From Planctomycetota bacterium (GTDB lineage Bacteria > Planctomycetota > SZUA-567): a stretch of DNA of 64,000 nt. Each line of letters opens with the position of its first letter. Position 1 is the stretch's first letter. Positions 53,181 through 64,000 of this stretch are shown one piece after another. Location of the stretch: NCBI GenBank assembly GCA_031269935.1, contig JAISYL010000177.1, forward strand, positions 5,433 through 69,432, written 5' to 3'. A model generated the notes under the pieces. That model was not told the DNA's origin and did no database searches. It worked only from the letters and a program-made list of their open reading frames with translations. A program made the position numbers and the translations under genes.

Positions 53181-53661
53181 GGCAGCCTCCCCAAAATGAT
53201 ACGCCGTTCAAACGCGCCACCCGCGGGGGATGGCGGACGGATTGGGAAAACAAGAAAGCGGCAAGGGCGCGAGCCAAGGGATCGGGGGATCGAATCGACT
53301 TCCAACAAGCCCGATTAATGCCGTGTCCAGCCGAAATCGTGGATTTAGGCTGGACGGGGAGTCGCCCCGGTTCATCCAGCTTCCGCCGAGCGTTGGAAAC
53401 GGCGTTTTGGCGAAACCGCGAAAAGTCCCGCCAAATGGCTTCTTTCGCTCGTGAATGAATATCGCGACCAATCATAGGGCAAGGCGCAATCCTGTCAACT
53501 AAAAAAGGCGCGGCGAATTTGTGGATAAACGGCTAACGCGCCCCGCGACGGTTGCGGAGGAAAATGTCCGATTATGGGGGGATCCACAAATTCGGAAGAA
53601 CGGAATCGAATTGTTTTTGGGGGGCGGCTGCCGGAAGGTTGGGGAATGGAGGCGGCCGGGG

Positions 53662-53868
53662 TCAGGCAACCCCCAATCCGGGAATGTAAACTTCAAGTTT
53701 CCAGCCAAGTTTTTCCATCAGGGTGTAAACATCATCCCGGCCGATGTTGAAATGCTCGTGTTCGGCGTATTCCAACAAAGTCAGGAGAATCCCCTTTTCA
53801 TCTCCGGAGTTGGAATTAAGGACATACCAATACCCCTTCTTGCGCATTATCATGGTTTTTTCAAGCAT
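53662..53868 (-). CDS. Small hypothetical protein
   Basis: 68 aa starting at MLEKTMIMRKKGYWYV (GGGAGG upstream). No recognised family. Confidence 0.35.
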   Translation of the reverse strand: MLEKTMIMRKKGYWYVLNSNSGDEKGILLTLLEYAEHEHFNIGRDDVYTLMEKLGWKLEVYIPGLGVA

Positions 53869-53974
53869 GGGCGATCCTCCCTGATTCGCTCCGGAAAAAT
53901 CCCGGCCGCCAGCAATTGCCATCCGTGAAACTTTCCTTTCGGATCAATTTCGTTTATTCTTCAGGGAAAAACGC

Positions 53975-54002
53975 TTGCAATGCCCGGGGCGCCCGATATA
54001 CT
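53975..54002 (+). promoter_or_regulatory. Sigma70-like promoter for tRNA-Arg
   Basis: TTGCAA (53975-53980), 16-nt spacer, TATACT (53997-54002), about 30 nt before the tRNA 5' end. Confidence 0.5.
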
Positions 54003-54035
54003 ATGTTGTTTGCTTGATTGTCTCCAGGACCTAAC

Positions 54036-54112
54036 GCGCTGGTAGCTCAATTGGATAGAGCGTCAGACTACGGATCTGAAGGTTAGGGGTTCGACTCCTC
54101 TCCGGCGCGCCA
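54036..54112 (+). tRNA. tRNA-Arg (anticodon ACG)
   Basis: Hand-folded cloverleaf. Acceptor GCGCTGG/CCGGCGC, D-stem GCTC/GAGC, anticodon stem TCAGA/TCTGA with loop CT-ACG-GA, T-arm AGGGG-TTCGACT-CCTCT, discriminator G, encoded CCA. Confidence 0.93.
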
Positions 54113-54662
54113 ACCCTCCATCCACGCCAACCCCTTTTAATTCAATATGTTCTGGATTTTGCCGCCAACCTGGATGGGATGTTGATTTCCTGTCTGAAAA
54201 AAACACGCCGCCGCACCTTGTCCTTGCCGAGGGTTTTCGCGAATTTCAACAAAAGGAGGTTCTTCGGAAGAATTTGTGGATGATTTAAGACAAACCACTC
54301 CCTCTGCCTCCGGCTCCAGGGCTTCGAGGGATCGCCCTCTCCACACCCCGTCACCATCCCGGCCCAGCCTAAAGTGCGACCGACGCCGATGGTGACGGGA
54401 ATCCGAGGGCTCTAACCCAAATCCCGCGTCTTTGACGCGAAAGGGAGCTGGCGGCAAAATAGGGTTGGACTGCCCTTGCAACAACATCGCGCAAAGTCAA
54501 AACTGCGCCGAAAATGCTCTGATGAAATCATAATGTTTTGCCGTTGAATAGATTATCGACAATAATGATCCGCCAAGGTTAAATTGGATCCACGAATTAT
54601 TCCGAAGAAGCCAAAAAATAAATCGCAATTTCAAGACGCGACCAGTATATTATTAATCAATT

Positions 54663-54815
54663 AGAGCGTGTTGTTAAATACCGGATCGCCCGGGTTGGAC
54701 AAGGAAAAAGTCGCTGGCAGGATGATTTTTGGCCGGCGGTCAGGGGTAAAAATCATCCGAGAAGCGGCTTTTGACGCAGTATAACCCGACGAGACGGTAT
54801 TTAACAACACGCTCT
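54663..54815. repeat. ~140-nt foldback repeat, family 1, copy 3
   Basis: Perfect 21-bp terminal inverted repeat agagcgtgttgttaaataccg / cggtatttaacaacacgctct and a central ggatgattttt / aaaaatcatcc hairpin. Its last base is the first base of the stop-codon triplet of gene 54815..55480. Confidence 0.9.
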
Positions 54816-55480
54816 TAAAAGTCGGCCAAGGGATGGGCGGTGACCCTATGCGGGTTTACAAAACCTTGAACGGTCACCCCCGACGGGGTTTTGCCTTCCC
54901 ATTTATTGTACGGCAACATCGCCTTGCCCGGACCATCCCAGGCGGCCTGGACTTCGAGCTTGATCCTTTCCGCGGTCCAATCCTTGGGAAACATCGTCGT
55001 TATTCCATTATTGGAAACCTTCCGCACCCAGCGATCGGCGGCTTTGTCGTATATTTCTATCGCCGCCTCATAGACGCCGTTGGCGTCGGGGGCGCCCTCG
55101 GTTCCGGGAACAATCCTTACGCCGCCGGTGGTCAGCGAATGCCCGCCCGCGGCCTTGCCCGCCTTGTTGATTTCCCCCCCCGCCATATGGTTGAAATCCA
55201 AGGGGGAATTGGCCGGATTGGGCAGGGCCCGGATTGATCGCGGGCGGCGTTCGGAGCGGTTTTCGGCCGCGCTTACGCCGATGCCGCCCCCGGTTTGGGC
55301 CGGCCGCCCCCCGCTGGCGGAAGCGCCGTTCCCCGCCGTCGATTCCGCCCCCGCCGGCGTCCGGCTTCCCGAAGCCGCGGGATCCGCCGCGATTCGGAAA
55401 TCGCCGACCCTGGCCAGGAACCATCCGGACAAGAGCAGGAAAACCAGCAACCGGATCCCGGCGGACATTTTTCCGGACAT
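54815..55480 (-). CDS. Secreted EndoU-like (bacterial EndoU nuclease domain) toxin candidate
   Basis: Signal peptide MSAGIRLLVFLLLSGWFL and a Gly/Ala/Ser-rich linker. These are followed by NHMAGGEINKAGKAAGGHSL...TTMFPKDWTAERIKLEVQAAW...GKTPSGVTVQGFV...VTAHPL, which follows the pattern I recall for Pfam EndoU_bacteria. Confidence 0.55.
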   Translation of the reverse strand: MSGKMSAGIRLLVFLLLSGWFLARVGDFRIAADPAASGSRTPAGAESTAGNGASASGGRPAQTGGGIGVSAAENRSERRPRSIRALPNPANSPLDFNHMAGGEINKAGKAAGGHSLTTGGVRIVPGTEGAPDANGVYEAAIEIYDKAADRWVRKVSNNGITTMFPKDWTAERIKLEVQAAWDGPGKAMLPYNKWEGKTPSGVTVQGFVNPHRVTAHPLADF

Positions 55481-55652
55481 GGCGATACGCTTTCTAGCGG
55501 TCGGAAAAGGCGATAAGAGCGAGAAAATGAATAAAACTTACAACTTCGGCGTCGAAGCGCCATGCGGGCATTGAACCATCGCGCCTCAATGTAAACGTTG
55601 TTTTTTTATGCGATCCAGGTTGATTTTTAACCGGATCGCGTAGGCGCCGCAG

Positions 55653-56132
55653 TTATTCGCCCACCTCGGCCAAGACCGCTTGAATGATGCGTTTCGAATA
55701 CCAAGCCCCTTCCGCGGTCAGCTTGTCGGTCATCGGCTTGAGGCGGGGAATAAGGCCGAGCGTCTTTGCCTTGCCCAATAACGCCAACAGCCCCATTACC
55801 TTCAAACCGACAGATTCAGCGATCTTTCGGCCGCGTAAATCGTCCAGACACACCCGGGCGATGCGGTTGTTAAGGGCAAGCTGGATGGCTTCGGCTTCGC
55901 CCGGATCGAGAAATTGGCGAATCATGGGAGAGACGGGGAACGACAATTCCTTGAGGATAAGCCGATTGGAAGCGATGATGCGGCGGCCCAAGCGTATTCC
56001 GGCATCCAATTCCATCCGCACCGCCGGCGGATAAATGAACCGGTACGGCAGCCGGTCAAGGATATTCAAGGAGTCGATGCGATCTAGTAGAATCAGTGGC
56101 CCGCTGTTGATGACAACGGGTTCATTTTCCAC
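55653..56132 (-). CDS. DUF3368 PIN-like toxin
   Basis: VVINSGPLILLDRIDSLNIL...LDPGEAEAIQLALNN...VCLDDLRGRKIAESVGLKVMGLLALLGKAK matches DUF3368. GTG 56132 is preferred (11-nt overlap with the antitoxin stop); ATG 56171 is the alternative. Confidence 0.75.
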   Translation of the reverse strand: MENEPVVINSGPLILLDRIDSLNILDRLPYRFIYPPAVRMELDAGIRLGRRIIASNRLILKELSFPVSPMIRQFLDPGEAEAIQLALNNRIARVCLDDLRGRKIAESVGLKVMGLLALLGKAKTLGLIPRLKPMTDKLTAEGAWYSKRIIQAVLAEVGE

Positions 56133-56385
56133 GGATGAACTCCAATTCGTTTTCGATGTCGTCAGGACCAAGATTGCTCATCGGGTATCCATGTCTGGGC
56201 AACTCGTGGAGAAATTGGATTTTTTCCATGCCGCAAAGCCTAGCCGCCTGGCCGGCGGTAATTTTACCGTCCATCCATAGTTTGGCCGCCACGGTGAATC
56301 TGGTGATGTCAATGAATTCCTGGGAAGTCAGGTTGGCCATCAACAGGACATTTTCATCAAAAGGCACGGTAAAATGCCGATCCAT
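56122..56385 (-). CDS. UPF0175-family antitoxin
   Basis: Start moved to MDRHFTVPF. AAKLWMDGKITAGQAARLCGMEKIQFLHEL is the UPF0175 HTH block. Confidence 0.75.
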   Translation of the reverse strand: MDRHFTVPFDENVLLMANLTSQEFIDITRFTVAAKLWMDGKITAGQAARLCGMEKIQFLHELPRHGYPMSNLGPDDIENELEFIRGK

Positions 56386-56590
56386 CGCTTCGTCTCCCCC
56401 GACTCCATGCCATTTCCCGAACAAACCATGGACTCCGGCATTATACCGCCGGTTTCGTTTCAATGGATCGTTTTTTCGTCAGCGCGACCCAAACCGGCGA
56501 CATGGCAAAAAAAACGGCTGCTCTGGAATCGACCCCCATTGCCGAAGGGGAATCGCTTCCCCGGAGGCGGAATTGGATGAACCGGGGGCG

Positions 56591-59500
56591 TTACCCCTCC
56601 GCCAATTTTTCCGCTTCGTCCCGGTCCGGGGGGACCGGCGAGTGGCGCGAGAGGCACGGGGAGGCCTGGATCCGGAAGGGCTCCCCCGGGAATTCCCCCG
56701 ACTTCAGGTAAAACTCGCCGACTCCGAGCCTGCCCACCACTCCCCGCCTTTGCAGGAGGCCCTCCGCCGCCTCGATGGCGGCGGGGGAATTCTGGAGGCC
56801 GAAAAATTGGCTGTGGCAGCTGTTTATCGCCCGGTTGTCCAAGCTTTTCGGCTCCCGGCCGGTCAGGACCAGCCCCATTCCGTACTTCCGCGCCCGGGAG
56901 GCGAACCGGATCGGCGCCTCCTCGCCGGGGGTAGATCCTCCGGAGGGGACGAAGTCCCTCGCCTCGTCGATCACCAACAGGCTCCCCAATCCCCGGGCGG
57001 GATGATCCCGGATCCAGCCGAACAGGGCCATGACCAACTGGCTGACGAAAATCCGCCGCGCCTCCTTCCCGTCCAGGGCGGAAAGGTTCACCACCGACAC
57101 CCGGGTTTTCCCCCCGGCGCCCCGGAAGAGATCGTCGACGGGGTCCGGCCCGCCGGCCGAACGCAGCAGGGGATTGACGGCCAGGGCCCCCCTCAGCTTT
57201 CCGGCCAGATCGGCCCCCCAGCCCGCCGCCCGGGCGCGGTTGATTTCCAGCGCCCCGGAATCCCCGGGGAGGTCGGCCAATATTCCGGCCAGGGTCTCCA
57301 AATCCCCCCCTCCGCGCCTCGCCATCCATTCCAGGCATTTGGCGACCACCCCCGCCCGGGCCTGGTCGGTGTCGCGGAGGGACAGCGGTCCCCGGAGGGC
57401 GGCCAGGGCCAGGGTTGTCGCCTCGGCCAATTCATCCCCGTTTTCCGCCGCCGCCGCCAGGTCCGGAAGCGGGCGAAGGCGCAGGGGATTGCCGCCCGGG
57501 CGGCCGGGAGTCCATATTTTCACCTCGACCCGCCTGAAATAGCGTTCCGCCCGCTCCCGGTCGCCTTCCTCCCAGGCGGCGGGCGGCTCCGGCCAGGGCT
57601 GCCCCAGCCGGGAAAGATCGTTGGCGGAGTCCACCACCACCGAGGGGACTCCCCGGAGGGCGGCCTCCTCCACCAGGCGCCTCACCAGGACGGTCTTGCC
57701 CGAGCCGCCGCCGCCCAGGATGGCGACATGCCTTTTCAGGGCTTCCAGGGGCAAGGCCGCCGGCTCGCCCCGGACCCCGCCCGCCAGCCTTCTTCCCAGC
57801 GGGATCGCCGAAGGCGGCTCCTCCCCCCTCTCCGCCCTCCCCGGGCTTTCCGGAAGCGGGCCGTCCCCGGCCCCGAGGTCGATCAACTGGACCGCCACCT
57901 CCGGGACTTCGGGGGCATCCCCTTCCCCGGCCGGGGGGGGATTCCCGCCCAGGAGCCAGGACAACTCGTCCTTCAGAAAATCGATGCCGTCGAGGGGCCG
58001 GGTTTGCCGCAGCCATTGGCGCCAGTCGCGGGGGAAGCGGCGCTCGACCTCGGCCAGGGCGGCCAGGGAACGGACGGTTTCGTCCGAGGGGCCAATCCAG
58101 ACCCCTCCGGAGCCGGCGAACTGGTCCAGCAATTCCCGGGTTTTGGGGCCGCCGGGAAAGGCCCCGAACCGGATCAAGGCCAATTTCCTGAAGGTAAGGC
58201 GGCTGTCTATCCCGGATTGGGTCATGGCCGCCTTCAGCCGGGTCTGGAAGGCCCGGAAATGGGGATGCAATATCGCCCTGAGCCCCAACTGCCGGTCGCG
58301 TCCGCCGGGCCCGATCGCCTCGAACCTTATCCGGGCGTGGAGAAGGGGGGACTTTCCCTCCCCCCGGCGGCCGTCGCCGTCGTCCACATAGAGGTTCGCC
58401 TCGGTTAGGGCGCCCCGCTGATGGCAAAAAGCCAGGGCGAAACAGGAGAGGGAGCGGCTCCAAAAAACCTCCTCCCGTCCCTTCTCCCGGAGTTTTTCCG
58501 GGTTCGCCGCCGCCTTCGCCTCCAGAAAGATCCGGCTTAGCGAATCCGGGCGGCCGGGCCGGGCCCCGTCCTTCCCGGTTCGGCCGCCCGGATCCGGAAG
58601 GCCGGCCTCCCGCGCCTCCCCGGCGGCCAGGCAACGCTTGACATGCCGGTCGCAAAGCTGCAACACGTCCCGGGGATACCTCCCCCCCAGTCCGTCCAGG
58701 AAGGCGGGCGGAAACGGCCAGGTGGGGTAGGGAGGAACCTTTCCGGTTTTTTCGAAGGCGGGGAGGACCCGCGCGGCCACCAGGCTCCGAATCTGGGTCC
58801 CATCCTCCAGGACAGACAATTTGAAGGGTTCCCGAAACCGGTCCCGGGCGGTCTTGAGCCCGTGGCCGGTCAGAATCCCCCACGAGTCGAAAAGGCAGGA
58901 CAGCACCACCAGGCAATTGCGGGTAAGGTCGGGGAGGGAGACGAGGCCGGCGCAAATCCCGGCGACGATACCCCGGGCGGTTTGGGCCTCCCCGGCCCCG
59001 GAACCGCCTTCGGGAAGGAGGGGCGGCTTGACGATGCCGTCAAGCTGGTCCAGGGCGAACACGGAAAAGCCGCCGTCCAGGGACATGAGCCAGGACAGCC
59101 CGGCGATCACCGCCTTCGCCTCGCCGCCGGCCTGGCGGAAGCCGAGGGAGCTGGCCGTCTCCGCCTCCAGGGGCGGGCCCTGGAGCCATTGGCGCCCGCA
59201 TTCGGAAATGTCCAGATCGCCGGAGGCCAGCAGAAACAGGGCCCGGATCACGTCCCGGTATTCCCGGGCCTGGTCCCGGTAAAGCCCGAACAGGCCCTTC
59301 ACCGTCCGGTCGGCCGCCCCGGCCAAATCGTCCCGGAACAGGGTGGGGACGGCTTCGGGATCGACCCCGGCCCGGGAAGCGGCGGCGATTTTCGCGATCA
59401 GGCGCGGCAACTGTGGGTTTTCGACCGGCCGGGAAAGGGAGCGGACGGCGTGGAGGAGCAGGGTGTCCCAGAAATCCTTGACCCCGGTCATGTCGACCAG

Positions 59501-59752
59501 GACGAAGAAGCCCTTCCCGGCCAGGGTCTCCCGGCGAAACGACCCCAGGATATGGGTTTTCCCCGACCCGCCCAGGCCGGTCACCACCCAGCCGAGGGGG
59601 GAGGACGCCCTTCGGGGAAGCTCGGCCGCGGCCTTGGCGAAGTGGCCGCGGATATCCCGGTTGATTTCCGGGAGGTCGGCCGAATCGCCGCCCCAAACCT
59701 CGTCGAGGCGCCTTACCCAGTCGAAATCCATCGCCTCCAGGACATCCAGCAT
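56591..59752 (-). CDS. 1053-aa dual P-loop protein: N-terminal Orc/STAND-like ATPase fused to C-terminal HerA/FtsK-like (DUF87-type) ATPase
   Basis: Walker A GLGGSGKTH (aa 59-67) with VFALDQLD (231-238). Second Walker A LGGGGSGKT (679-687), Walker B LLVIDEARDF (925-934) and GMGLVLTGREPKSLDNRAINSCHSQFFG. No nuclease or other effector motif seen. Confidence 0.7.
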   Translation of the reverse strand: MLDVLEAMDFDWVRRLDEVWGGDSADLPEINRDIRGHFAKAAAELPRRASSPLGWVVTGLGGSGKTHILGSFRRETLAGKGFFVLVDMTGVKDFWDTLLLHAVRSLSRPVENPQLPRLIAKIAAASRAGVDPEAVPTLFRDDLAGAADRTVKGLFGLYRDQAREYRDVIRALFLLASGDLDISECGRQWLQGPPLEAETASSLGFRQAGGEAKAVIAGLSWLMSLDGGFSVFALDQLDGIVKPPLLPEGGSGAGEAQTARGIVAGICAGLVSLPDLTRNCLVVLSCLFDSWGILTGHGLKTARDRFREPFKLSVLEDGTQIRSLVAARVLPAFEKTGKVPPYPTWPFPPAFLDGLGGRYPRDVLQLCDRHVKRCLAAGEAREAGLPDPGGRTGKDGARPGRPDSLSRIFLEAKAAANPEKLREKGREEVFWSRSLSCFALAFCHQRGALTEANLYVDDGDGRRGEGKSPLLHARIRFEAIGPGGRDRQLGLRAILHPHFRAFQTRLKAAMTQSGIDSRLTFRKLALIRFGAFPGGPKTRELLDQFAGSGGVWIGPSDETVRSLAALAEVERRFPRDWRQWLRQTRPLDGIDFLKDELSWLLGGNPPPAGEGDAPEVPEVAVQLIDLGAGDGPLPESPGRAERGEEPPSAIPLGRRLAGGVRGEPAALPLEALKRHVAILGGGGSGKTVLVRRLVEEAALRGVPSVVVDSANDLSRLGQPWPEPPAAWEEGDRERAERYFRRVEVKIWTPGRPGGNPLRLRPLPDLAAAAENGDELAEATTLALAALRGPLSLRDTDQARAGVVAKCLEWMARRGGGDLETLAGILADLPGDSGALEINRARAAGWGADLAGKLRGALAVNPLLRSAGGPDPVDDLFRGAGGKTRVSVVNLSALDGKEARRIFVSQLVMALFGWIRDHPARGLGSLLVIDEARDFVPSGGSTPGEEAPIRFASRARKYGMGLVLTGREPKSLDNRAINSCHSQFFGLQNSPAAIEAAEGLLQRRGVVGRLGVGEFYLKSGEFPGEPFRIQASPCLSRHSPVPPDRDEAEKLAEG

Positions 59753-59762
59753 TCCCCGCCCC

Positions 59763-60386
59763 TTACTTGATTAGCGCGGTATAGACGTTCCTTCCCCCCA
59801 CCTCCAGCGCCGCCGCCTCGTCCTCCGGGGTTGTCCGGGAGGGATCGTCGAACGAATAGAGGACGATTTTCCCCTCCCTTTGCCAGGAACGGAGCGTTTC
59901 GTCCAGGGCTTCCCGGGGAACGCCGGCCAATTCCTCCCGCAAGTCGCGGAGCCGGATTCCTCCGTCCGGAAGGCGCCGCCCCTCCCAGGCCCGGAAAAAG
60001 CGCCGCCATAATTCCCCCTCCCCGAGGGCGGGGGCGGGAAGGGGAAAAACCTCGGACAGCCGGATTCCCCGCGCCCGCATCAGCCGGTCCAGGGCTTTCA
60101 GGACCTCCCCCAGGATCGGCCCGGCGGCGTGGCCGCGCGTCTCCAGGGGATCGCCCAGGCGCTCGGACAGGAAGCGCCAAGCGTGATCGGTAAGTTCCAG
60201 GAGGATTTGCGGGCGGATGGCCTTGACCCGGATCAGGTCAAGCTCCAGGTAGGCCAGCCGGTGCCTTTTTTCCATGGCCGGGCGGATTTCCCCCTGCCGG
60301 GCCTCGCCCCCGTGGACGAGCAGGTACCAAAGGCGCAGCAAATCCGGCGGCTTCAATCCGGCTTCCTTCGCCAGTTCGCCTTCCAT
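59763..60386 (-). CDS. Winged-helix-like protein, first gene of the ATPase operon
   Basis: 207 aa with helix-rich halves LLRLWYLLVHGGEARQGEI and IRLRDLREELAGVPREALDETLRSWQREGKIVLYSF. The stop lies 10 nt before the ATPase ATG. Confidence 0.6.
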   Translation of the reverse strand: MEGELAKEAGLKPPDLLRLWYLLVHGGEARQGEIRPAMEKRHRLAYLELDLIRVKAIRPQILLELTDHAWRFLSERLGDPLETRGHAAGPILGEVLKALDRLMRARGIRLSEVFPLPAPALGEGELWRRFFRAWEGRRLPDGGIRLRDLREELAGVPREALDETLRSWQREGKIVLYSFDDPSRTTPEDEAAALEVGGRNVYTALIK

Positions 60387-60596
60387 CTTTATTTTCCCGG
60401 TTCGTTCCTTTTTAAGTTATTTTTGGGCGGACCCTAAGCTGGATTCCAACCGCCGGAGAAATACGCCTTTTCCTCACCCGCCTTGGGGTCATTTTACCAC
60501 AAAAGGAGATTGCGCCAATATCGAAATGGTTTTGATCGGGCTTTTCAATTAGACGGCAAGTATCCGCCGTCCCTTTCCCCGGATCATTTGAAAACA

Positions 60597-61187
60597 CTAT
60601 GGGATAACCATAATTGGGTTCTCTCGCCATTCTTGTGTCGCGTATGTATACCGAATTGCGAGCCGACCGCCAAGGCCGGGAAAAAAACCGCGAAATATGT
60701 CGCTCAATTCACGGACGCTTCGGGAATGGTCCGGCGGGTTCCCGCTTTCCCGAACCGGCAAGATGTTTGCCGGCATGTGGAAGGGCAAGGACGCGGAAAT
60801 GATTCGGCGCGACATGAAAGCCGCCGGAATACCGGGAAGGGATGAAGCCGGGCAATCGCGGGACTTCGGATTTACCCGCGAATCAAAAGGATGGAGTGGT
60901 TCGAATACGGAGTGGGCGGAATTTTGACGAATCGAACAGGGAAAATTTGCCGCTCGGACAAGAGGAAAAGAATGCAAGAATTCTCGGGACGGCTCCGCTT
61001 CGGCCAGCATCTTCCTCAATTCTTCCGGCGAGAGCATGACGGTCTCGCCGTCCTTTCGGGAAACCATCGGCACGCCCGCCTGAATATGCCGCTTCATGGC
61101 CTCGTGCGCTCCGCGCCGCATGGCGTCCCTAACCGGCTCGCCCTGGGCAATCAGGGCATCAATATCGACGACTCTGTTTTCAGCCAT
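60597..61187 (-). CDS. ORF overlapping the zeta-like pseudogene stop; only the first ~65 aa look protein-like
   Basis: MAENRVVDIDALIAQGEPVRDAMRRGAHEAMKRHIQAGVPMVSRKDGETVMLSPEELRKML looks coding. The rest runs antisense through the integrase remnant and looks non-coding. ATGGCTGA overlap with the upstream ORF. Confidence 0.3.
   Translation of the reverse strand: MAENRVVDIDALIAQGEPVRDAMRRGAHEAMKRHIQAGVPMVSRKDGETVMLSPEELRKMLAEAEPSREFLHSFPLVRAANFPCSIRQNSAHSVFEPLHPFDSRVNPKSRDCPASSLPGIPAAFMSRRIISASLPFHMPANILPVRESGNPPDHSRSVRELSDIFRGFFPGLGGRLAIRYTYATQEWRENPIMVIP
60650..60927 (+). pseudogene. Remnant of a tyrosine recombinase/phage integrase
   Basis: Two frames carry integrase-like fragments. KAGKKTAKYVAQFTDASGMVRRVPAF resembles N-terminal arm-binding regions. 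DAEMIRRDMKAAGIPGRDEAGQSRDFGFTR resembles the ...AGIP..D..G...DFH.LR catalytic-domain block. Over 80 percent of a normal gene is missing. Confidence 0.35.
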
Positions 61188-61590
61188 TGGCGAAATCCGC
61201 TTTCAGTTTTTCAAAACGCTCCGCACCAGCCACGCAAATAGTATAGCCGTCGCTCTCCGCGATGCCCACTGGCTTGCCGGGAGTCGAGTTGTCGTATATT
61301 TTCCAGGACGACACAACCGGCATGTACAATTGGAAAAGATTCTTCAAACCAGCCGCAAACCGCCTTCGAATGACCGTCTCATCGATGGCATGGCCACCGA
61401 GCCCGACCCGGGTGGCAGCCCGGTTGATGGCGAAATCCGCATCCGGAAGGGTCAAAAACACCAGGTGCGCACGGTGCCCTGATTCCCGCAATCAAGCCGG
61501 CCAGGGCGCGAATGACCGCGATGCGAGCGTCGTCTCGAAGAAAATCAAACGGTGGTTCGTTTGATTTCCTTTAGATGCGACCTCAGGAAA
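61180..61590 (-). pseudogene. Zeta-toxin/COG4185-type P-loop kinase pseudogene (N-terminus lost, in-frame TGA)
   Basis: Hand translation gives ...RLIFFETTLASRSFAPWPA*LRESGHRAHLVFLTLPDADFAINRAATRVGLGGHAIDETVIRRRFAAGLKNLFQLY...WKIYDNS. The stop is TGA at 61492-61494. No Walker A is found upstream. Confidence 0.55.
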
Positions 61591-61610
61591 TTCACCGCTT
61601 CCACCGGAAA

Positions 61611-61745
61611 ATGAGCGATGCCGAATTGAATGCCCTGATTGCCGAAGGGGAAAAGGAATCGGGCGATCCTGGAATCGAGGCGCAGTTGCGGGAAATGGAT
61701 GATGATAAATTATGTATCCTTATTCTGGAAGGGGAACGGGCATGA
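61611..61745 (+). CDS. Small ORF (44 aa), hypothetical
   Basis: MSDAELNALIAEGEKESGDPGIEAQLREMDDDKLCILILEGERA. Its stop overlaps the next ATG (ATGA). Confidence 0.3.
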   Translation: MSDAELNALIAEGEKESGDPGIEAQLREMDDDKLCILILEGERA

Positions 61746-61957
61746 ATCTTGCGGCCAGGGTTGAACGATTGGAAGACTCGGCGGGGCATGACCGCGAAGG
61801 CATTCCTCCCATCATGCTTGATTTCATCGAGCCGGTCCTGGGCGAAGACGGGATGATGCGTCCGGGGAGATGCGCGGGCCATTTGCGGCTGGCTTTCGGC
61901 GAGCCGCCGCGATGGTTCGACGCAGACATGAATCCGATTCCCCGATGCCCGGCATAG
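61742..61957 (+). CDS. Small ORF (71 aa), hypothetical
   Basis: MNLAARVERLEDSAGHDREGIPPIMLDFIEPVLGEDG... Followed by two hairpins and a T-run. Confidence 0.3.
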   Translation: MNLAARVERLEDSAGHDREGIPPIMLDFIEPVLGEDGMMRPGRCAGHLRLAFGEPPRWFDADMNPIPRCPA

Positions 61958-62001
61958 CCGCATTACCCTTACGATTGATGAGGGTAATTCCGGCAATGGC
62001 T

Positions 62002-62033
62002 TCCCGCCCTTTCACCGGGGCGGGATTTTTTTT
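62002..62033 (+). terminator. Intrinsic terminator
   Basis: tcccgccc (62002-62009) pairs with gggcggga (62018-62025), followed by T8 (62026-62033). It is preceded by the hairpin attaccct/agggtaat. Confidence 0.7.
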
Positions 62034-62114
62034 CGAGGAGCCAACGCGCAATCGGCGTGTTGTCATATAGATGCGTTTGAATGCGACGGGGCGGGGAGTT
62101 TTCGAAAGCAATAA

Positions 62115-62142
62115 TTGACATATTTGCTAATAAGTATATAAT
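62115..62142 (+). promoter_or_regulatory. Sigma70-like promoter for higBA
   Basis: TTGACA (62115-62120), 16-nt spacer, TATAAT (62137-62142). AGGAGG at 62152-62157 precedes ATG 62164. Confidence 0.6.
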
Positions 62143-62163
62143 CTTGTTATCAGGAGGCGGGAT

Positions 62164-62442
62164 ATGATCAAATCATTCGGTTGCTCCAGGACGGAAGCCA
62201 TTTTCAATAATGAGCGCGTCAAAGAATTTCCGACAGGCATAATCAGGTCCGCCCATCGGAAACTGTTGCGATTGGAAGTCGCTCCTAGTCTTAACTATTT
62301 GAGTGTTCCCGCCGCGAACAGGCTGGAGAAATTGAAGGGCGATTTGGCCGGGTATTGGTCCATTCGCATCAATAGCCAATACAGAATAATTTTCCAGTGG
62401 GACGGCGATGCCCACGATGTCAAGATTGTCGATTACCATTGA
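62164..62442 (+). CDS. higB: HigB-type (RelE/ParE superfamily) toxin
   Basis: 92 aa. NRLEKLKGDLAGYWSIRINSQYRIIFQWDGD.AHDVKIVDYH is the plasmid-maintenance killer HigB signature. Confidence 0.85.
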   Translation: MIKSFGCSRTEAIFNNERVKEFPTGIIRSAHRKLLRLEVAPSLNYLSVPAANRLEKLKGDLAGYWSIRINSQYRIIFQWDGDAHDVKIVDYH

Positions 62443-62453
62443 GAGGATTGGCA

Positions 62454-62777
62454 ATGATTCCAAAAAAGGGAGTCACCCCGCATCCCGGCGAAATGTTGTC
62501 CGAAGAATTTTTGAAGCCGATGGGGATTACACAGGCTGCGTTTGCCCATCATATCCGAGTTGATGTCGCCACTTTGTCGGCGGTGATAAATGGCCGACGG
62601 GACATGACGCCGGCCATGATCATGAAAATCAGCATGGCGCTTGGCGTCGAGCCTGAAACTTGGCTGCGGATCCAATCCATGCACGATTTCACCAGGACCC
62701 GCGAAGCGCTTCGGGCAAAACGTCAACTGCCGAAAATCAAGCAGATGAAGGAATCGCTGGAACTGGTCGAGGCATGA
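62454..62777 (+). CDS. higA: HigA-type HTH antitoxin
   Basis: Start moved to MIPKKG. HPGEMLSEEFLKPMGITQAAFAHHIRVDVATLSAVINGRRDMTPAMIMKISMALGVEPETWLRIQ. Confidence 0.85.
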   Translation: MIPKKGVTPHPGEMLSEEFLKPMGITQAAFAHHIRVDVATLSAVINGRRDMTPAMIMKISMALGVEPETWLRIQSMHDFTRTREALRAKRQLPKIKQMKESLELVEA

Positions 62778-63094
62778 TGCCCCCGCCAATGCCTCACAAG
62801 CGCCCCGGGAACGCAACGGATTCTCCGGGAAGGAAATCCTTGGCTTGTCGGCCGAACGGCCTTAGAACGTCTTTATTCGCCCCGTTTGGTCGCGGAATTA
62901 CTCCCGACCCCGAAGGGAGGAGGCGACGGACGGCCCATTATGGTATCGGCCAAGACGGCCGGAGAATCGAAGGGAAGCGCCATGTTGAAAAAAGAATCGC
63001 CCGAATGCTTCGCCCATATCGCGAATGCCCGCCAGGATTGCCTGGCTTTGCCTTACGCGGCTTCGAACGAAGACAAGGCGGAATAATTCGCCCG

Positions 63095-63775
63095 ATGAAT
63101 CAACTAGACGGAAAATATACCGGCCATTCGATTCGCGATCTTTTTTTGAAGACACGTTCTTTTACGGCAACGCTGTCGTATCTCATCGAAATCGAGAAAA
63201 TTGAATCCATCGAAACACGAAAATCGAAATTCCTTTATCTGTTGAAAGCATTCCTACACGACTTCAATCACGTCTATTCGCTGTCAAATATTGTTAACGA
63301 AAAAACGGAAATCGAGGCGTCCGCCTGGAAAACAATTAAACTTTTTACCGACCAGAATGATGTATTTTCCTTCAAGAATGCCGGCATGATTCTGGAACAG
63401 TATTTTTCAGCCAAGAAATTCAATGAGCTTGTGGCTTGGATCGATTCTGAATTATCGCGTCTCCCGCCATTACCAAAATTGAATGCCGCACCCATCGCCG
63501 ATGGGGGCGCCAAGCCTGGGGCCGAGGCCGCGCCCGACAAGGAGGACACCGATTCGAAAGAAACAGAACTGGTGCCCGGCAACTTGGATGAAGACGGTTA
63601 TTTCACTCCGGTCGCAATCGCAAAGAGATACGGCCTTGCGACGGATATGGTTCGGAAACGACTGGACAAGTATCGGAAGAACAACGATCTTGGATGGCAA
63701 GAGAACGCAAACAGGAGGCCGAGGGAATCAATGTTCCTATATCAATGGCGAGCAATCAAACACCTTTTCGAATAA
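63095..63775 (+). CDS. Hypothetical protein, AT-rich, possible C-terminal DNA-binding helix-turn-helix
   Basis: Start moved to MNQLDGKYTG; the first 145 codons of ORF 62660..63775 overlap higA out of frame. The C-terminus is YFTPVAIAKRYGLATDMVRKRLDKYRK. No family recognised. Confidence 0.5.
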   Translation: MNQLDGKYTGHSIRDLFLKTRSFTATLSYLIEIEKIESIETRKSKFLYLLKAFLHDFNHVYSLSNIVNEKTEIEASAWKTIKLFTDQNDVFSFKNAGMILEQYFSAKKFNELVAWIDSELSRLPPLPKLNAAPIADGGAKPGAEAAPDKEDTDSKETELVPGNLDEDGYFTPVAIAKRYGLATDMVRKRLDKYRKNNDLGWQENANRRPRESMFLYQWRAIKHLFE

Positions 63776-63833
63776 TTTTTTGGCTGGAAAAATTCCAGCT
63801 AAATTCCAGCGAACATTTTTTTGAAGTTTTTTT

Positions 63834-63868
63834 GCCCGTCAAACAAGGCTTGACGGGCTTTTCATTTT
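63834..63868 (+). terminator. Intrinsic terminator
   Basis: gcccgtcaa (63834-63842) pairs with ttgacgggc (63850-63858) around a 7-nt loop, followed by ttttcatttt. Confidence 0.7.
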
Positions 63869-64000
63869 CCAGCCAAAATCTTCTGGCAACACCAAACACA
63901 AACTCTCCATAAACTTTCCATCGTCGGCGACCGGCAATCCCGATATGAACTTTAAAAGGCGCAAGCCTTTCCCTTCCCCCTCCCGCCGGTCGCCGGGAAG

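Follow-up and report, generated by a model that had tools for sequence, protein, structure and literature searches.

A winged-helix/HerA-FtsK ATPase gene pair in a Planctomycetota tRNA-Arg-linked island as a probable truncated copy of a DUF559 nuclease cassette

The 64,000-nucleotide stretch of Planctomycetota DNA analysed here (contig JAISYL010000177.1, positions 5,433 to 69,432; the whole stretch is called the window) contains two minus-strand open reading frames (ORFs) 10 nt apart, which encode a 207-amino-acid (aa) protein and a 1053-aa protein with two ATPase modules. A preliminary description had presented the pair as an orphan two-gene operon that could not be matched to any named system, a candidate anti-mobile-element module in which no effector is visible. 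Both ORFs and their spacing are confirmed, the promoter-like extended -10 element proposed upstream is present as the sole such match in 56300-60900, and scans with Pfam, PADLOC and NCBIfam likewise find no effector domain in either protein. The reading that we favour, and consider probable, is that the window pair derives by truncation from a horizontally mobile DUF559/winged-helix/ATPase cassette of the 'HerA/FtsK capture' class, the effector being missing from the operon because its DUF559 nuclease gene has been lost.

The DUF559 nuclease gene and its probable loss from the window copy

The 1053-aa ORF is a real gene despite the spurious ORFs of this GC-rich DNA, because an identical protein is on record (an NCBI 'DUF87 domain-containing protein' from a Planctomycetota metagenome-assembled genome), 45 further homologues share 26-51% identity with it, 311 homologous loci are confirmed among 185,579 species genomes, and a search of 1.84 billion cluster representatives retrieves 1403 at E<=1e-30, or ~1400 clusters at 50% identity. 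The named homologues belong to Planctomycetota, cyanobacteria, Ectothiorhodospiraceae and Candidatus Adiutrix. In the gene tables of homologues a protein with a C-terminal DUF559 domain (PF04480, 300-401 aa) is followed by a protein of ~200-230 aa and then by the ATPase. Scanning 83 homologous loci with profiles built from the cassette partner proteins, we find that a homologue of the 207-aa protein is encoded immediately before the ATPase in 81 of them, the other two (L034 and L066) having almost no upstream DNA, and that 70 of the 78 assessable loci, from many phyla, have the DUF559 gene, whose product is 340-430 aa long. The same three-gene order is present in L086, L088, L089, L090 and L092, the last of which, from Tsukamurella, is annotated in RefSeq as 'DUF559 domain-containing protein / hypothetical protein / DUF87 domain-containing protein'. 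In the homologous cassettes, adjacent genes most often overlap by 4 nt, at the first boundary as at the second, and their translation is therefore likely to be coupled; the window has its 10-nt spacer. The term orphan operon thus does not hold, as the same pair trails a nuclease gene in most assessable loci, and the window pair corresponds to the second and third genes of a conserved cassette of three, not to a self-contained effector-less unit.

Within the DUF559 domain, D289, E300, H307, D316, R317, R319 and D320 are invariant and D302 is nearly so (L004 numbering), and the profile of the domain matches a solved DUF559 protein in the Protein Data Bank (PDB 3hrl, 5.7e-6). Because these residues are invariant and the solved protein is matched, the partner is predicted to be an active Vsr-like endonuclease with the restriction-endonuclease (REase) fold; its N-terminal ~230 aa give no match. 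The complete cassette or the family is found in cultured Rhodopseudomonas palustris BisB18, Xanthobacter autotrophicus, Kolteria novifilia, Tsukamurella tyrosinosolvens and several cyanobacteria, and the hosts of the complete cassette among them are where it could be tested. Complete copies lie at ~1287220-1292235 of NC_007925 in R. palustris BisB18 and at 180907-185875 of NZ_LR134464 in Tsukamurella, and X. autotrophicus 7C has one as well. At one locus (L087, 7132-15388), a gene for a 661-aa PRiA4_ORF3 protein (PF07929) replaces the DUF559 gene upstream of the winged-helix gene and a gene for an LRR-Roc-COR protein follows the ATPase gene; an LRR protein gene lies directly downstream in L057.

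No DUF559 gene is found in the 64-kb window by tblastn with three partner proteins, the best match having an E-value of 0.25 and lying elsewhere. The GC content is 0.67-0.73 inside the operon and drops to ~0.52 directly upstream of the 207-aa gene, with the break at ~60400, and to ~0.53 downstream, while the core genome left of the tRNA gene has 0.60-0.63. Because its GC content lies above that of the flanks and of the core genome, the gene pair is compositionally foreign, and its 5' boundary is at the expected position of the nuclease gene. A neighbour-joining tree of the ATPases comprises 77 sequences, nine of them from loci that lack the nuclease gene, namely the window and eight homologous loci. 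Each of these nine occupies a terminal branch of its own, and the sister sequences of the window, L004 and L032, carry the nuclease gene. Because the nuclease-less loci are scattered singly over this tree, the nuclease gene appears to have been lost repeatedly and recently, and the nuclease-less copies would not represent a maintained lineage.

The window ATPase has also changed within its HerA core, where 'TGREPK' replaces 'ATQxPK' at nt 56855-56866. None of the 76 other compared members departs from Q953, A964 or Q966, and the window alone has Q953R, A964T and Q966R; 61 of the 77 sequences have no unique violation of an invariant site, and two, the window and one other, have three. Over the 161 sites that are at least 90% conserved, the window deviates at 16, compared with a family median of 6. 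Most likely, the window locus is a cassette remnant that does not restrict DNA, and the tRNA-Arg-linked island around it, with its fragments of toxin-antitoxin modules, is decaying as well.

Several observations weigh against this reading. All four Walker motifs and most invariant residues are kept in the window ATPase, both ORFs are full length, so that some function may persist, the three unique HerA-core substitutions are suggestive of decay and no proof of it, and nuclease-less loci amount to ~10%, hence a working two-gene form is possible. Such a form would dispense with a dedicated nuclease and might pump or strip invading DNA, recruit a nuclease whose gene lies elsewhere, or have a sensing or regulatory role. 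This is in our judgement unlikely, with a minor share of the probability: it would account for the intact ORFs with a promoter-like site upstream, for the retained Walker motifs and for the eight other loci that lack DUF559, including L087 with its PRiA4_ORF3 gene in that place, whereas the nuclease-less loci never form a clade and each sit on a terminal branch, as fits recent loss better, the window copy is changed at otherwise invariant HerA-core sites, and no added effector domain is found in the unusually long members of the ATPase family that could serve as an alternative. Under the truncated-cassette reading, the locus carries the caution that defence candidates which look 'effector-less' may be no more than truncated copies.

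Domain architecture of the ATPase and its winged-helix partner

The proposal of two independent NTPase modules in the 1053-aa protein is confirmed, the HerA module well above its Pfam cut-off (DUF87/HerA, 35.8 bits vs 23.2) and the N-terminal module at about threshold (AAA_16 on aa 47-141, 32.5 bits vs 32.6). The motifs GLGGSGKTH (59-67), VFALDQLD (231-238), LGGGGSGKT (679-687), LLVIDEARDF (925-934) and GMGLVLTGREPKSLD are each found at the residues first reported for them. An AlphaFold-type model of the protein (predicted local distance difference test score, pLDDT, 82) shows an AAA+ core comprising Walker A (59-67), a helical insertion (94-227) and Walker B (231-238), followed by lid helices. 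In the relatives P0189 and P0205, AAA_16 scores 35.5-36.0 bits, above its cut-off; a family profile of the N-terminal half returns only weak classic AAA+ matches in the PDB (E 0.0055) and no Orc/Cdc6 chain. The N-terminal module is clearly an AAA+ domain, and its assignment to the Orc/Cdc6 clade is a tentative one that follows AAA_16 at about threshold. The plan of STAND proteins, NB-ARC/NACHT with sensor repeats, is not seen, as Pfam NACHT/nSTAND matches are below cut-off and fall on the HerA P-loop (aa 673-717), not on the N-terminal module, and no repeat domain (TPR, WD40 or LRR) is found in the 1053-aa protein. Taken as a whole, the original domain reading, an Orc/STAND-like AAA+ module fused to a HerA/FtsK module and accompanied by a winged-helix partner, was correct, with the clade of the AAA+ module tentative.

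The Walker B motif of the AAA+ half reads D-Q-[LIM]-D in 77 of 77 family members. When PDB chains of the AAA+ protein Msp1 are aligned with the family profile, their 'IIFIDQID' falls opposite its 'ALDQLD' (a weak match, E 0.0055). We take these chains to be Walker B Glu-to-Gln trapping mutants, and the AAA+ half seems to be the naturally occurring counterpart of such a mutant. R305, R328 and R361 are conserved in this half, R305 being a candidate arginine finger. Because Walker A and these candidate arginines are kept, the AAA+ half probably binds ATP and oligomerises, and because a glutamine stands for the Walker B glutamate in every member, it probably hydrolyses ATP poorly; both expectations come from residue conservation.

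Between the two ATPase halves, the model contains an alpha/beta domain (aa 424-553) in the order helix-strand-strand-strand-helix-strand (helix 424-446, strands 452-457, 473-479 and 486-493, helix 499-513, strand 522-527), followed by helices at 557-600. H472, R474, E486-x-H488 and R492 are conserved in the family, the D...(D/E)xK signature is absent, and the window protein has D486 and Q488 (H488 is kept in 74 of the 77 members); a profile of this middle region has no match in the PDB. A wider polar set is shared by most members, comprising E445, D453, D/E457, H472, R474, E486, H488 and R492, with H472 and H488 each present in 74 of 77 (window aa numbering, 445-492), and it could form a metal- or ligand-binding site instead of a dead scaffold.

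The C-terminal half resembles HerA in sequence and in predicted structure. With the 1053-aa model as query, the top 50 Foldseek matches all lie on this half, the best being Sulfolobus HerA (4d2i, E 3.8e-12), which ranks above TrwB (~3e-9); the HerA chains of the SIR2-HerA, DUF4297-HerA, HerA-NurA and TdpAB complexes are also matched. A sequence search of the PDB with the ATPase gives only weak HerA and TrwB matches, and the Pfam/NCBIfam matches to TrwB, TraD and FtsK are weak (TrwB and FtsK below the Pfam cut-off) and confined to the P-loop. Barrel-like strands (649-668) precede the HerA core in the model, and four insert helices (772-790, 797-812, 818-826 and 839-859) lie between its strands. 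G681-K686, D929-E930, R955 and Q966 are conserved in the family, which shows the features of the HerA clade (Walker A, hhhhDE Walker B, polar sensor, arginine and N-terminal barrel); the window copy has Q966R at the sensor. A conserved glutamine acts as a sensor in the FtsK-HerA superfamily.

The two winged-helix-looking halves that had been described for the 207-aa product are supported by its AlphaFold model (pLDDT 91.4, built on 51 homologues), in which winged-helix halves at aa 1-75 and 123-207 are linked by a long helix (88-106). Foldseek matches of this model are weak (E>=0.04, probability up to 1.0) and are to ScpB and to winged helices of the MarR/PadR/ArsR type. The sequence has no match in Pfam, PADLOC (which includes no match to DndG or SspB) or NCBIfam, and its family profile finds nothing significant in the PDB. 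Mean column identity in the family is 37-41%.

Comparison with known HerA/FtsK systems and genomic context

An architecture of this kind has been described by comparative genomics. Krishnan et al. (Nucleic Acids Res 2024;52:1005; PMC10853773) defined 'HerA/FtsK capture systems', one class of which couples HerA/FtsK to Orc/CDC6 AAA+ ATPases. In this class, an inactive REase interrupts the Orc/CDC6 ATPase between the AAA+ core and its C-terminal winged helix. A winged helix and an active REase, for which there are two families, are further core domains, and the HerA/FtsK component has in one subset a four-helix bundle insert and lacks the FtsK-alpha domain. Some systems also encode a fast-evolving protein of its own gene in which 2-4 winged-helix domains are combined. 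The authors predicted an anti-invader role, proposing that the Orc/Cdc6 part positions the machinery on DNA and that HerA/FtsK intercepts invader DNA or pumps it to the nuclease (PMC10853773), and the Orc/CDC6-coupled HerA/FtsK description is repeated in PMC12839542 (2026). The window ATPase shares with this class a HerA/FtsK module with a four-helix insert (DUF87, Foldseek and model); its AAA+ module and its alpha/beta domain, which has no canonical nuclease motif and is followed by helices, are candidate counterparts of the Orc/CDC6 ATPase and the inactive REase, and the two halves of the 207-aa model agree with the separate 2-4-winged-helix protein. The cassette family as a whole adds a separate gene for a nuclease of the active REase fold (70 of 78 loci), a separate multi-winged-helix gene and mobile neighbourhoods. 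In contrast to the class, the window copy has no active nuclease gene and is substituted at invariant HerA sites. DUF559 is not named among the two nuclease families of PMC10853773, nor is a universal D-Q Walker B.

The class had thus been described before, the domain combination having been reported computationally (PMC10853773), and the candidate anti-mobile-element ATPase module remains the best-supported category, although it is neither a two-gene system nor an undescribed one. That the operon matches no named system stands in so far as PADLOC returns only a partial mad8 match and weak HerA matches, NCBIfam scores are far below cut-off (HerA_antiphage, 21.8 bits vs 800; HerA_antiphage_2, 14.2 vs 850), and no family name is given in NCBIfam release 20.0, in PADLOC-DB 2.0.0 or in the RefSeq product names seen. 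What is new here is the full gene content of the cassette, DUF559 as its effector, the universal D-Q Walker B and the repeated loss of the nuclease, all of which are directly testable in a widespread family for which we found no experimental test; the set of cultured hosts named above is new as well.

The class assignment and the defence role are tempered by further points. The domain at aa 424-553 is an inactive-REase (iREase) candidate on the basis of its secondary-structure order, the missing canonical motif and the description in PMC10853773; the presence of this exact family in the data set or Figure 7 of that paper is not confirmed, the supplement text having no matching terms. We found no experiment tying the cassette family to defence and, in the literature, no experimental test of the Orc/CDC6-coupled class; literature linking DUF559 to HerA, DUF87 or anti-phage activity was sought and nothing relevant was found. 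Defence genes are not claimed to be enriched around the cassette, since the hits among 142 neighbour ORFs are sporadic only and any enrichment is weak.

Several named systems share parts of this architecture. DUF4297-HerA and SIR2-HerA (Nezha) likewise combine a HerA-family ATPase with an effector gene, and their HerA chains 8wod, 8zit and 8sub are among the best structural matches; however, no SIR2 or DUF4297 gene adjoins the window operon, the window ATPase is twice as long and includes an AAA+ half, and a winged-helix protein is present as a third component. The C-terminal half also matches PADLOC mad8 of MADS (mad1-mad8, Pseudomonas aeruginosa), at 5.4e-16 for the window protein and 2.1e-27 for the R. 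palustris member, whereas mad8 is a 314-position profile without an AAA+ half. For MADS to be called, mad6, mad7 and mad8 must all be present, and a methylase, a specificity subunit and a kinase are among its parts (bioRxiv 10.1101/2023.03.30.534895); PADLOC finds no other mad component in the two window proteins or in the three R. palustris cassette proteins, and Pfam finds no methylase or kinase in the ORFs around the operon. DndH/DptH of DndFGH and TdpAB share a HerA/FtsK motor with REase-fold nuclease and winged-helix partners (TdpAB 8wfd is a structural match), but DndH matches in PADLOC are marginal (E ~0.02-0.05) and no DndF, DndG or phosphorothioate modification genes are found. HerA-NurA resembles the cassette in its HerA fold, the top structural match (4d2i, 9x1m), and in pairing an ATPase with a nuclease; it differs in that the cassette nuclease is DUF559 and not NurA, Mre11/Rad50 are absent, and the distribution of the cassette is patchy and looks horizontally transferred.

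This last comparison bears on another explanation, in which the cassette family would be an accessory DNA-repair or recombination module whose HerA translocase and nuclease act in end resection. Such a role would be in keeping with HerA-NurA among the top structural matches and with the many loci that lie among housekeeping genes. We give it only a slight chance: the 311 loci in 185,579 genomes are a patchy distribution over unrelated phyla, neighbourhoods are not conserved, the nuclease is repeatedly lost, at some loci Zorya or toxin-antitoxin genes adjoin the cassette, in the window its GC content sets it apart from the DNA around it, and no NurA, Mre11 or Rad50 partner is found in the listed homologue neighbourhoods.

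A scan of the 142 nearest-neighbour ORFs of 40 loci gives hits to 143 Pfam families, mostly housekeeping, of which the 25 most common were displayed. No relaxase, type IV secretion system (T4SS) or replication family is among these 25, and no relaxase, T4SS or replication gene occurs at the eight homologous loci with Pfam- or RefSeq-annotated genes. Uma2 appears three times among the nearest-neighbour ORFs, models for BrxA, DruE, PDC-S02 and AriA-like proteins are matched in a PADLOC scan, and PIN toxin-antitoxin pairs flank the cassette in L002 and in Tsukamurella. A cassette homologue is present in 3 of 72,556 plasmid records, two of which resemble chromosomal sequence (one is 11.85 Mb long and one has ribosomal protein operons around the cassette), and in none of 50,697 phage records. 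The pattern is that of a small, self-contained, horizontally moving cassette, not of a conjugation or replication module.

These counts largely refute the competing view of the preliminary description, that the pair is a leftover DNA-transfer or replication module of a decayed element, with an FtsK/TraB/TrwB-like translocase and a winged-helix regulator. The structural match to TrwB (~3e-9), the weak P-loop-only hits to TrwB, TraD and FtsK and the position in a tRNA-linked island would be expected of such a leftover; however, relaxase, T4SS, replication and integrase genes are absent both beside the annotated homologues and from the 25 commonest families, plasmid homologues are few and mostly chromosomal in appearance, phage homologues are lacking, the conserved partner is a nuclease, and HerA outranks TrwB. 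We therefore regard it as hardly credible.

For the complete cassette of the favoured capture-class reading, we infer a defence role, a complex, a ring and the following division of labour. The overlap of the genes suggests a constant ratio between the three proteins, which would assemble into one complex, in which the C-terminal HerA/FtsK modules could form a ring that translocates double-stranded DNA with ATP. The N-terminal AAA+ modules would bind ATP, hydrolyse little or none of it, and serve as an assembly or DNA-loading switch, not as a motor; the tandem winged-helix protein would provide DNA recognition, and the DUF559 nuclease would cut the DNA that is reeled in. In the window, two intact ORFs would be driven by the promoter-like site in the replacing DNA, a site (60518-60491, minus strand) for which shuffled sequences predict 0.3 matches in 56300-60900. 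A more elaborate arrangement, to which we attach a small probability, is a stacked double ring, a machine without known precedent, in which a hydrolysis-dead AAA+ tier is a nucleotide-gated clamp or sensor and the HerA tier reels in foreign DNA for a detachable DUF559 nuclease; nuclease-less copies like that of the window could then persist because the winged-helix protein and the double ATPase exclude or silence invaders unaided.

Features of the locus and observations on neighbouring genes

Table 1. Positions of the features of the gene pair in the window
Feature	Position (nt)	Strand	Basis or remark
207-aa tandem winged-helix gene ('middle' gene of the cassette)	59763..60386	-	ORF list, AlphaFold model, Foldseek
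Intergenic spacer, 10 nt, between the 207-aa and 1053-aa genes	59753..59762	-	ORF list
1053-aa gene, fusion of Orc/Cdc6-like AAA+ (clade tentative) and HerA/FtsK ATPases	56591..59752	-	ORF, Pfam, homologues, model, Foldseek
N-terminal AAA+ module (Orc/Cdc6/STAND-like, AAA_16), aa ~40-380	58613..59635	-	Pfam, profile, conservation
AAA+ Walker A, aa 59-67	59552-59578	-
AAA+ Walker B 'DQLD', aa 235-238	59039-59050	-
Alpha/beta domain, aa 424-553, candidate inactive REase fold (iREase)	58094..58483	-	modelled secondary structure
Predicted disordered linker between the ATPase halves, aa 604-647	57812..57943	-	pLDDT <50
HerA/FtsK module, aa 649-1030	56663..57808	-	Pfam DUF87, PADLOC mad8, Foldseek
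HerA Walker A, aa 679-687	57692-57718	-
Four-helix insert in the HerA core, aa 772-859	57176-57439	-	model
HerA Walker B, aa 925-934	56951-56980	-
Deviant HerA-core segment, 'AQARKYG...ATQxPK' to 'SRARKYG...TGREPK' (Q953R, A964T, T965G, Q966R)	56855..56896	-
Sigma-70-like promoter candidate, extended -10, TTGGCG-16-TGgTAAAAT	60491..60518	-	in low-GC DNA replacing the nuclease gene
Compositional breakpoint where the DUF559 nuclease gene sits in complete cassettes	60387..60600	.	GC profile, tblastn

The surroundings of the operon largely agree with what had been described, as Pfam recovers the EndoU, DUF3368, UPF0175, HigB and HTH_3 antitoxin genes and the tRNA-Arg gene is located at 54036-54112. 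A zeta-toxin fragment (61180-61491) matches plasmid genes annotated 'zeta toxin family protein' (tblastn, 1e-19), whereas neither Pfam (E<=1) nor a tblastn comparison with plasmids detects the decayed integrase. The 103-aa ORF of the zeta fragment (minus strand) covers the C-terminal part of the toxin only and is overlapped by a 196-aa ORF (60597-61187) without a family match, and the region from the operon to HigBA looks like a patchwork of gene fragments. A 371-aa ORF (62660-63775, plus strand, GC 0.46-0.55) overlaps the 3' end of the HigA-like gene and has no Pfam match at E<=1. The window contains no repeat of the tRNA-Arg 3' end that would delimit the island, and the repeat families in 53500-64000 resemble chance matches.

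The EndoU protein (54815-55480, minus strand) has a hydrophobic signal-like start and a Gly/Ala/Ser/Pro-rich region before its nuclease domain (aa 95-219), and looks like a secreted toxin; no immunity gene was identified beside it. A 31-nt inverted repeat (54663-54693 / 54785-54815, 87% complementary) abuts the 3' end of the gene.

Several long antisense ORFs overlap the operon, among them a 757-aa ORF opposite the ATPase gene (56135-58408, plus strand) with a translation rich in Pro, Gly and Arg. Because long spurious ORFs are common in DNA of 67-73% GC, this ORF looks like a by-product of composition and no gene.

Some homologous loci have neighbours of their own interest. In L090 (1-7400; ENA ERZ25039533 contig_45267), a complete type I Zorya system, with ZorA-like, OmpA-type ZorB, EH_Signature ZorC and SNF2+Mrr_cat ZorD genes, adjoins the upstream end of a full cassette and is oriented divergently from it; the ATPase of this cassette is split into genes of 647 and 376 aa, and a DDE transposase lies downstream. 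In L092 (2492-8212; Tsukamurella tyrosinosolvens NCTC13231 'plasmid 22', NZ_LR134464), the cassette, a PIN-VapB pair and a DEAD/DEAH helicase gene are located between rplN and rpsQ, an insertion inside a ribosomal-protein gene cluster; with its ribosomal protein operons, this 224-kb 'plasmid' may be a chromosomal piece. Downstream of the cassette in L004 (12750-18508) are genes for a dCMP deaminase, a dCTP deaminase/dUTPase-like protein, ThyX, a T2SSE-type ATPase and an SMC_N/AAA_23 protein, a run that could be a nucleotide-modification or defence cluster.

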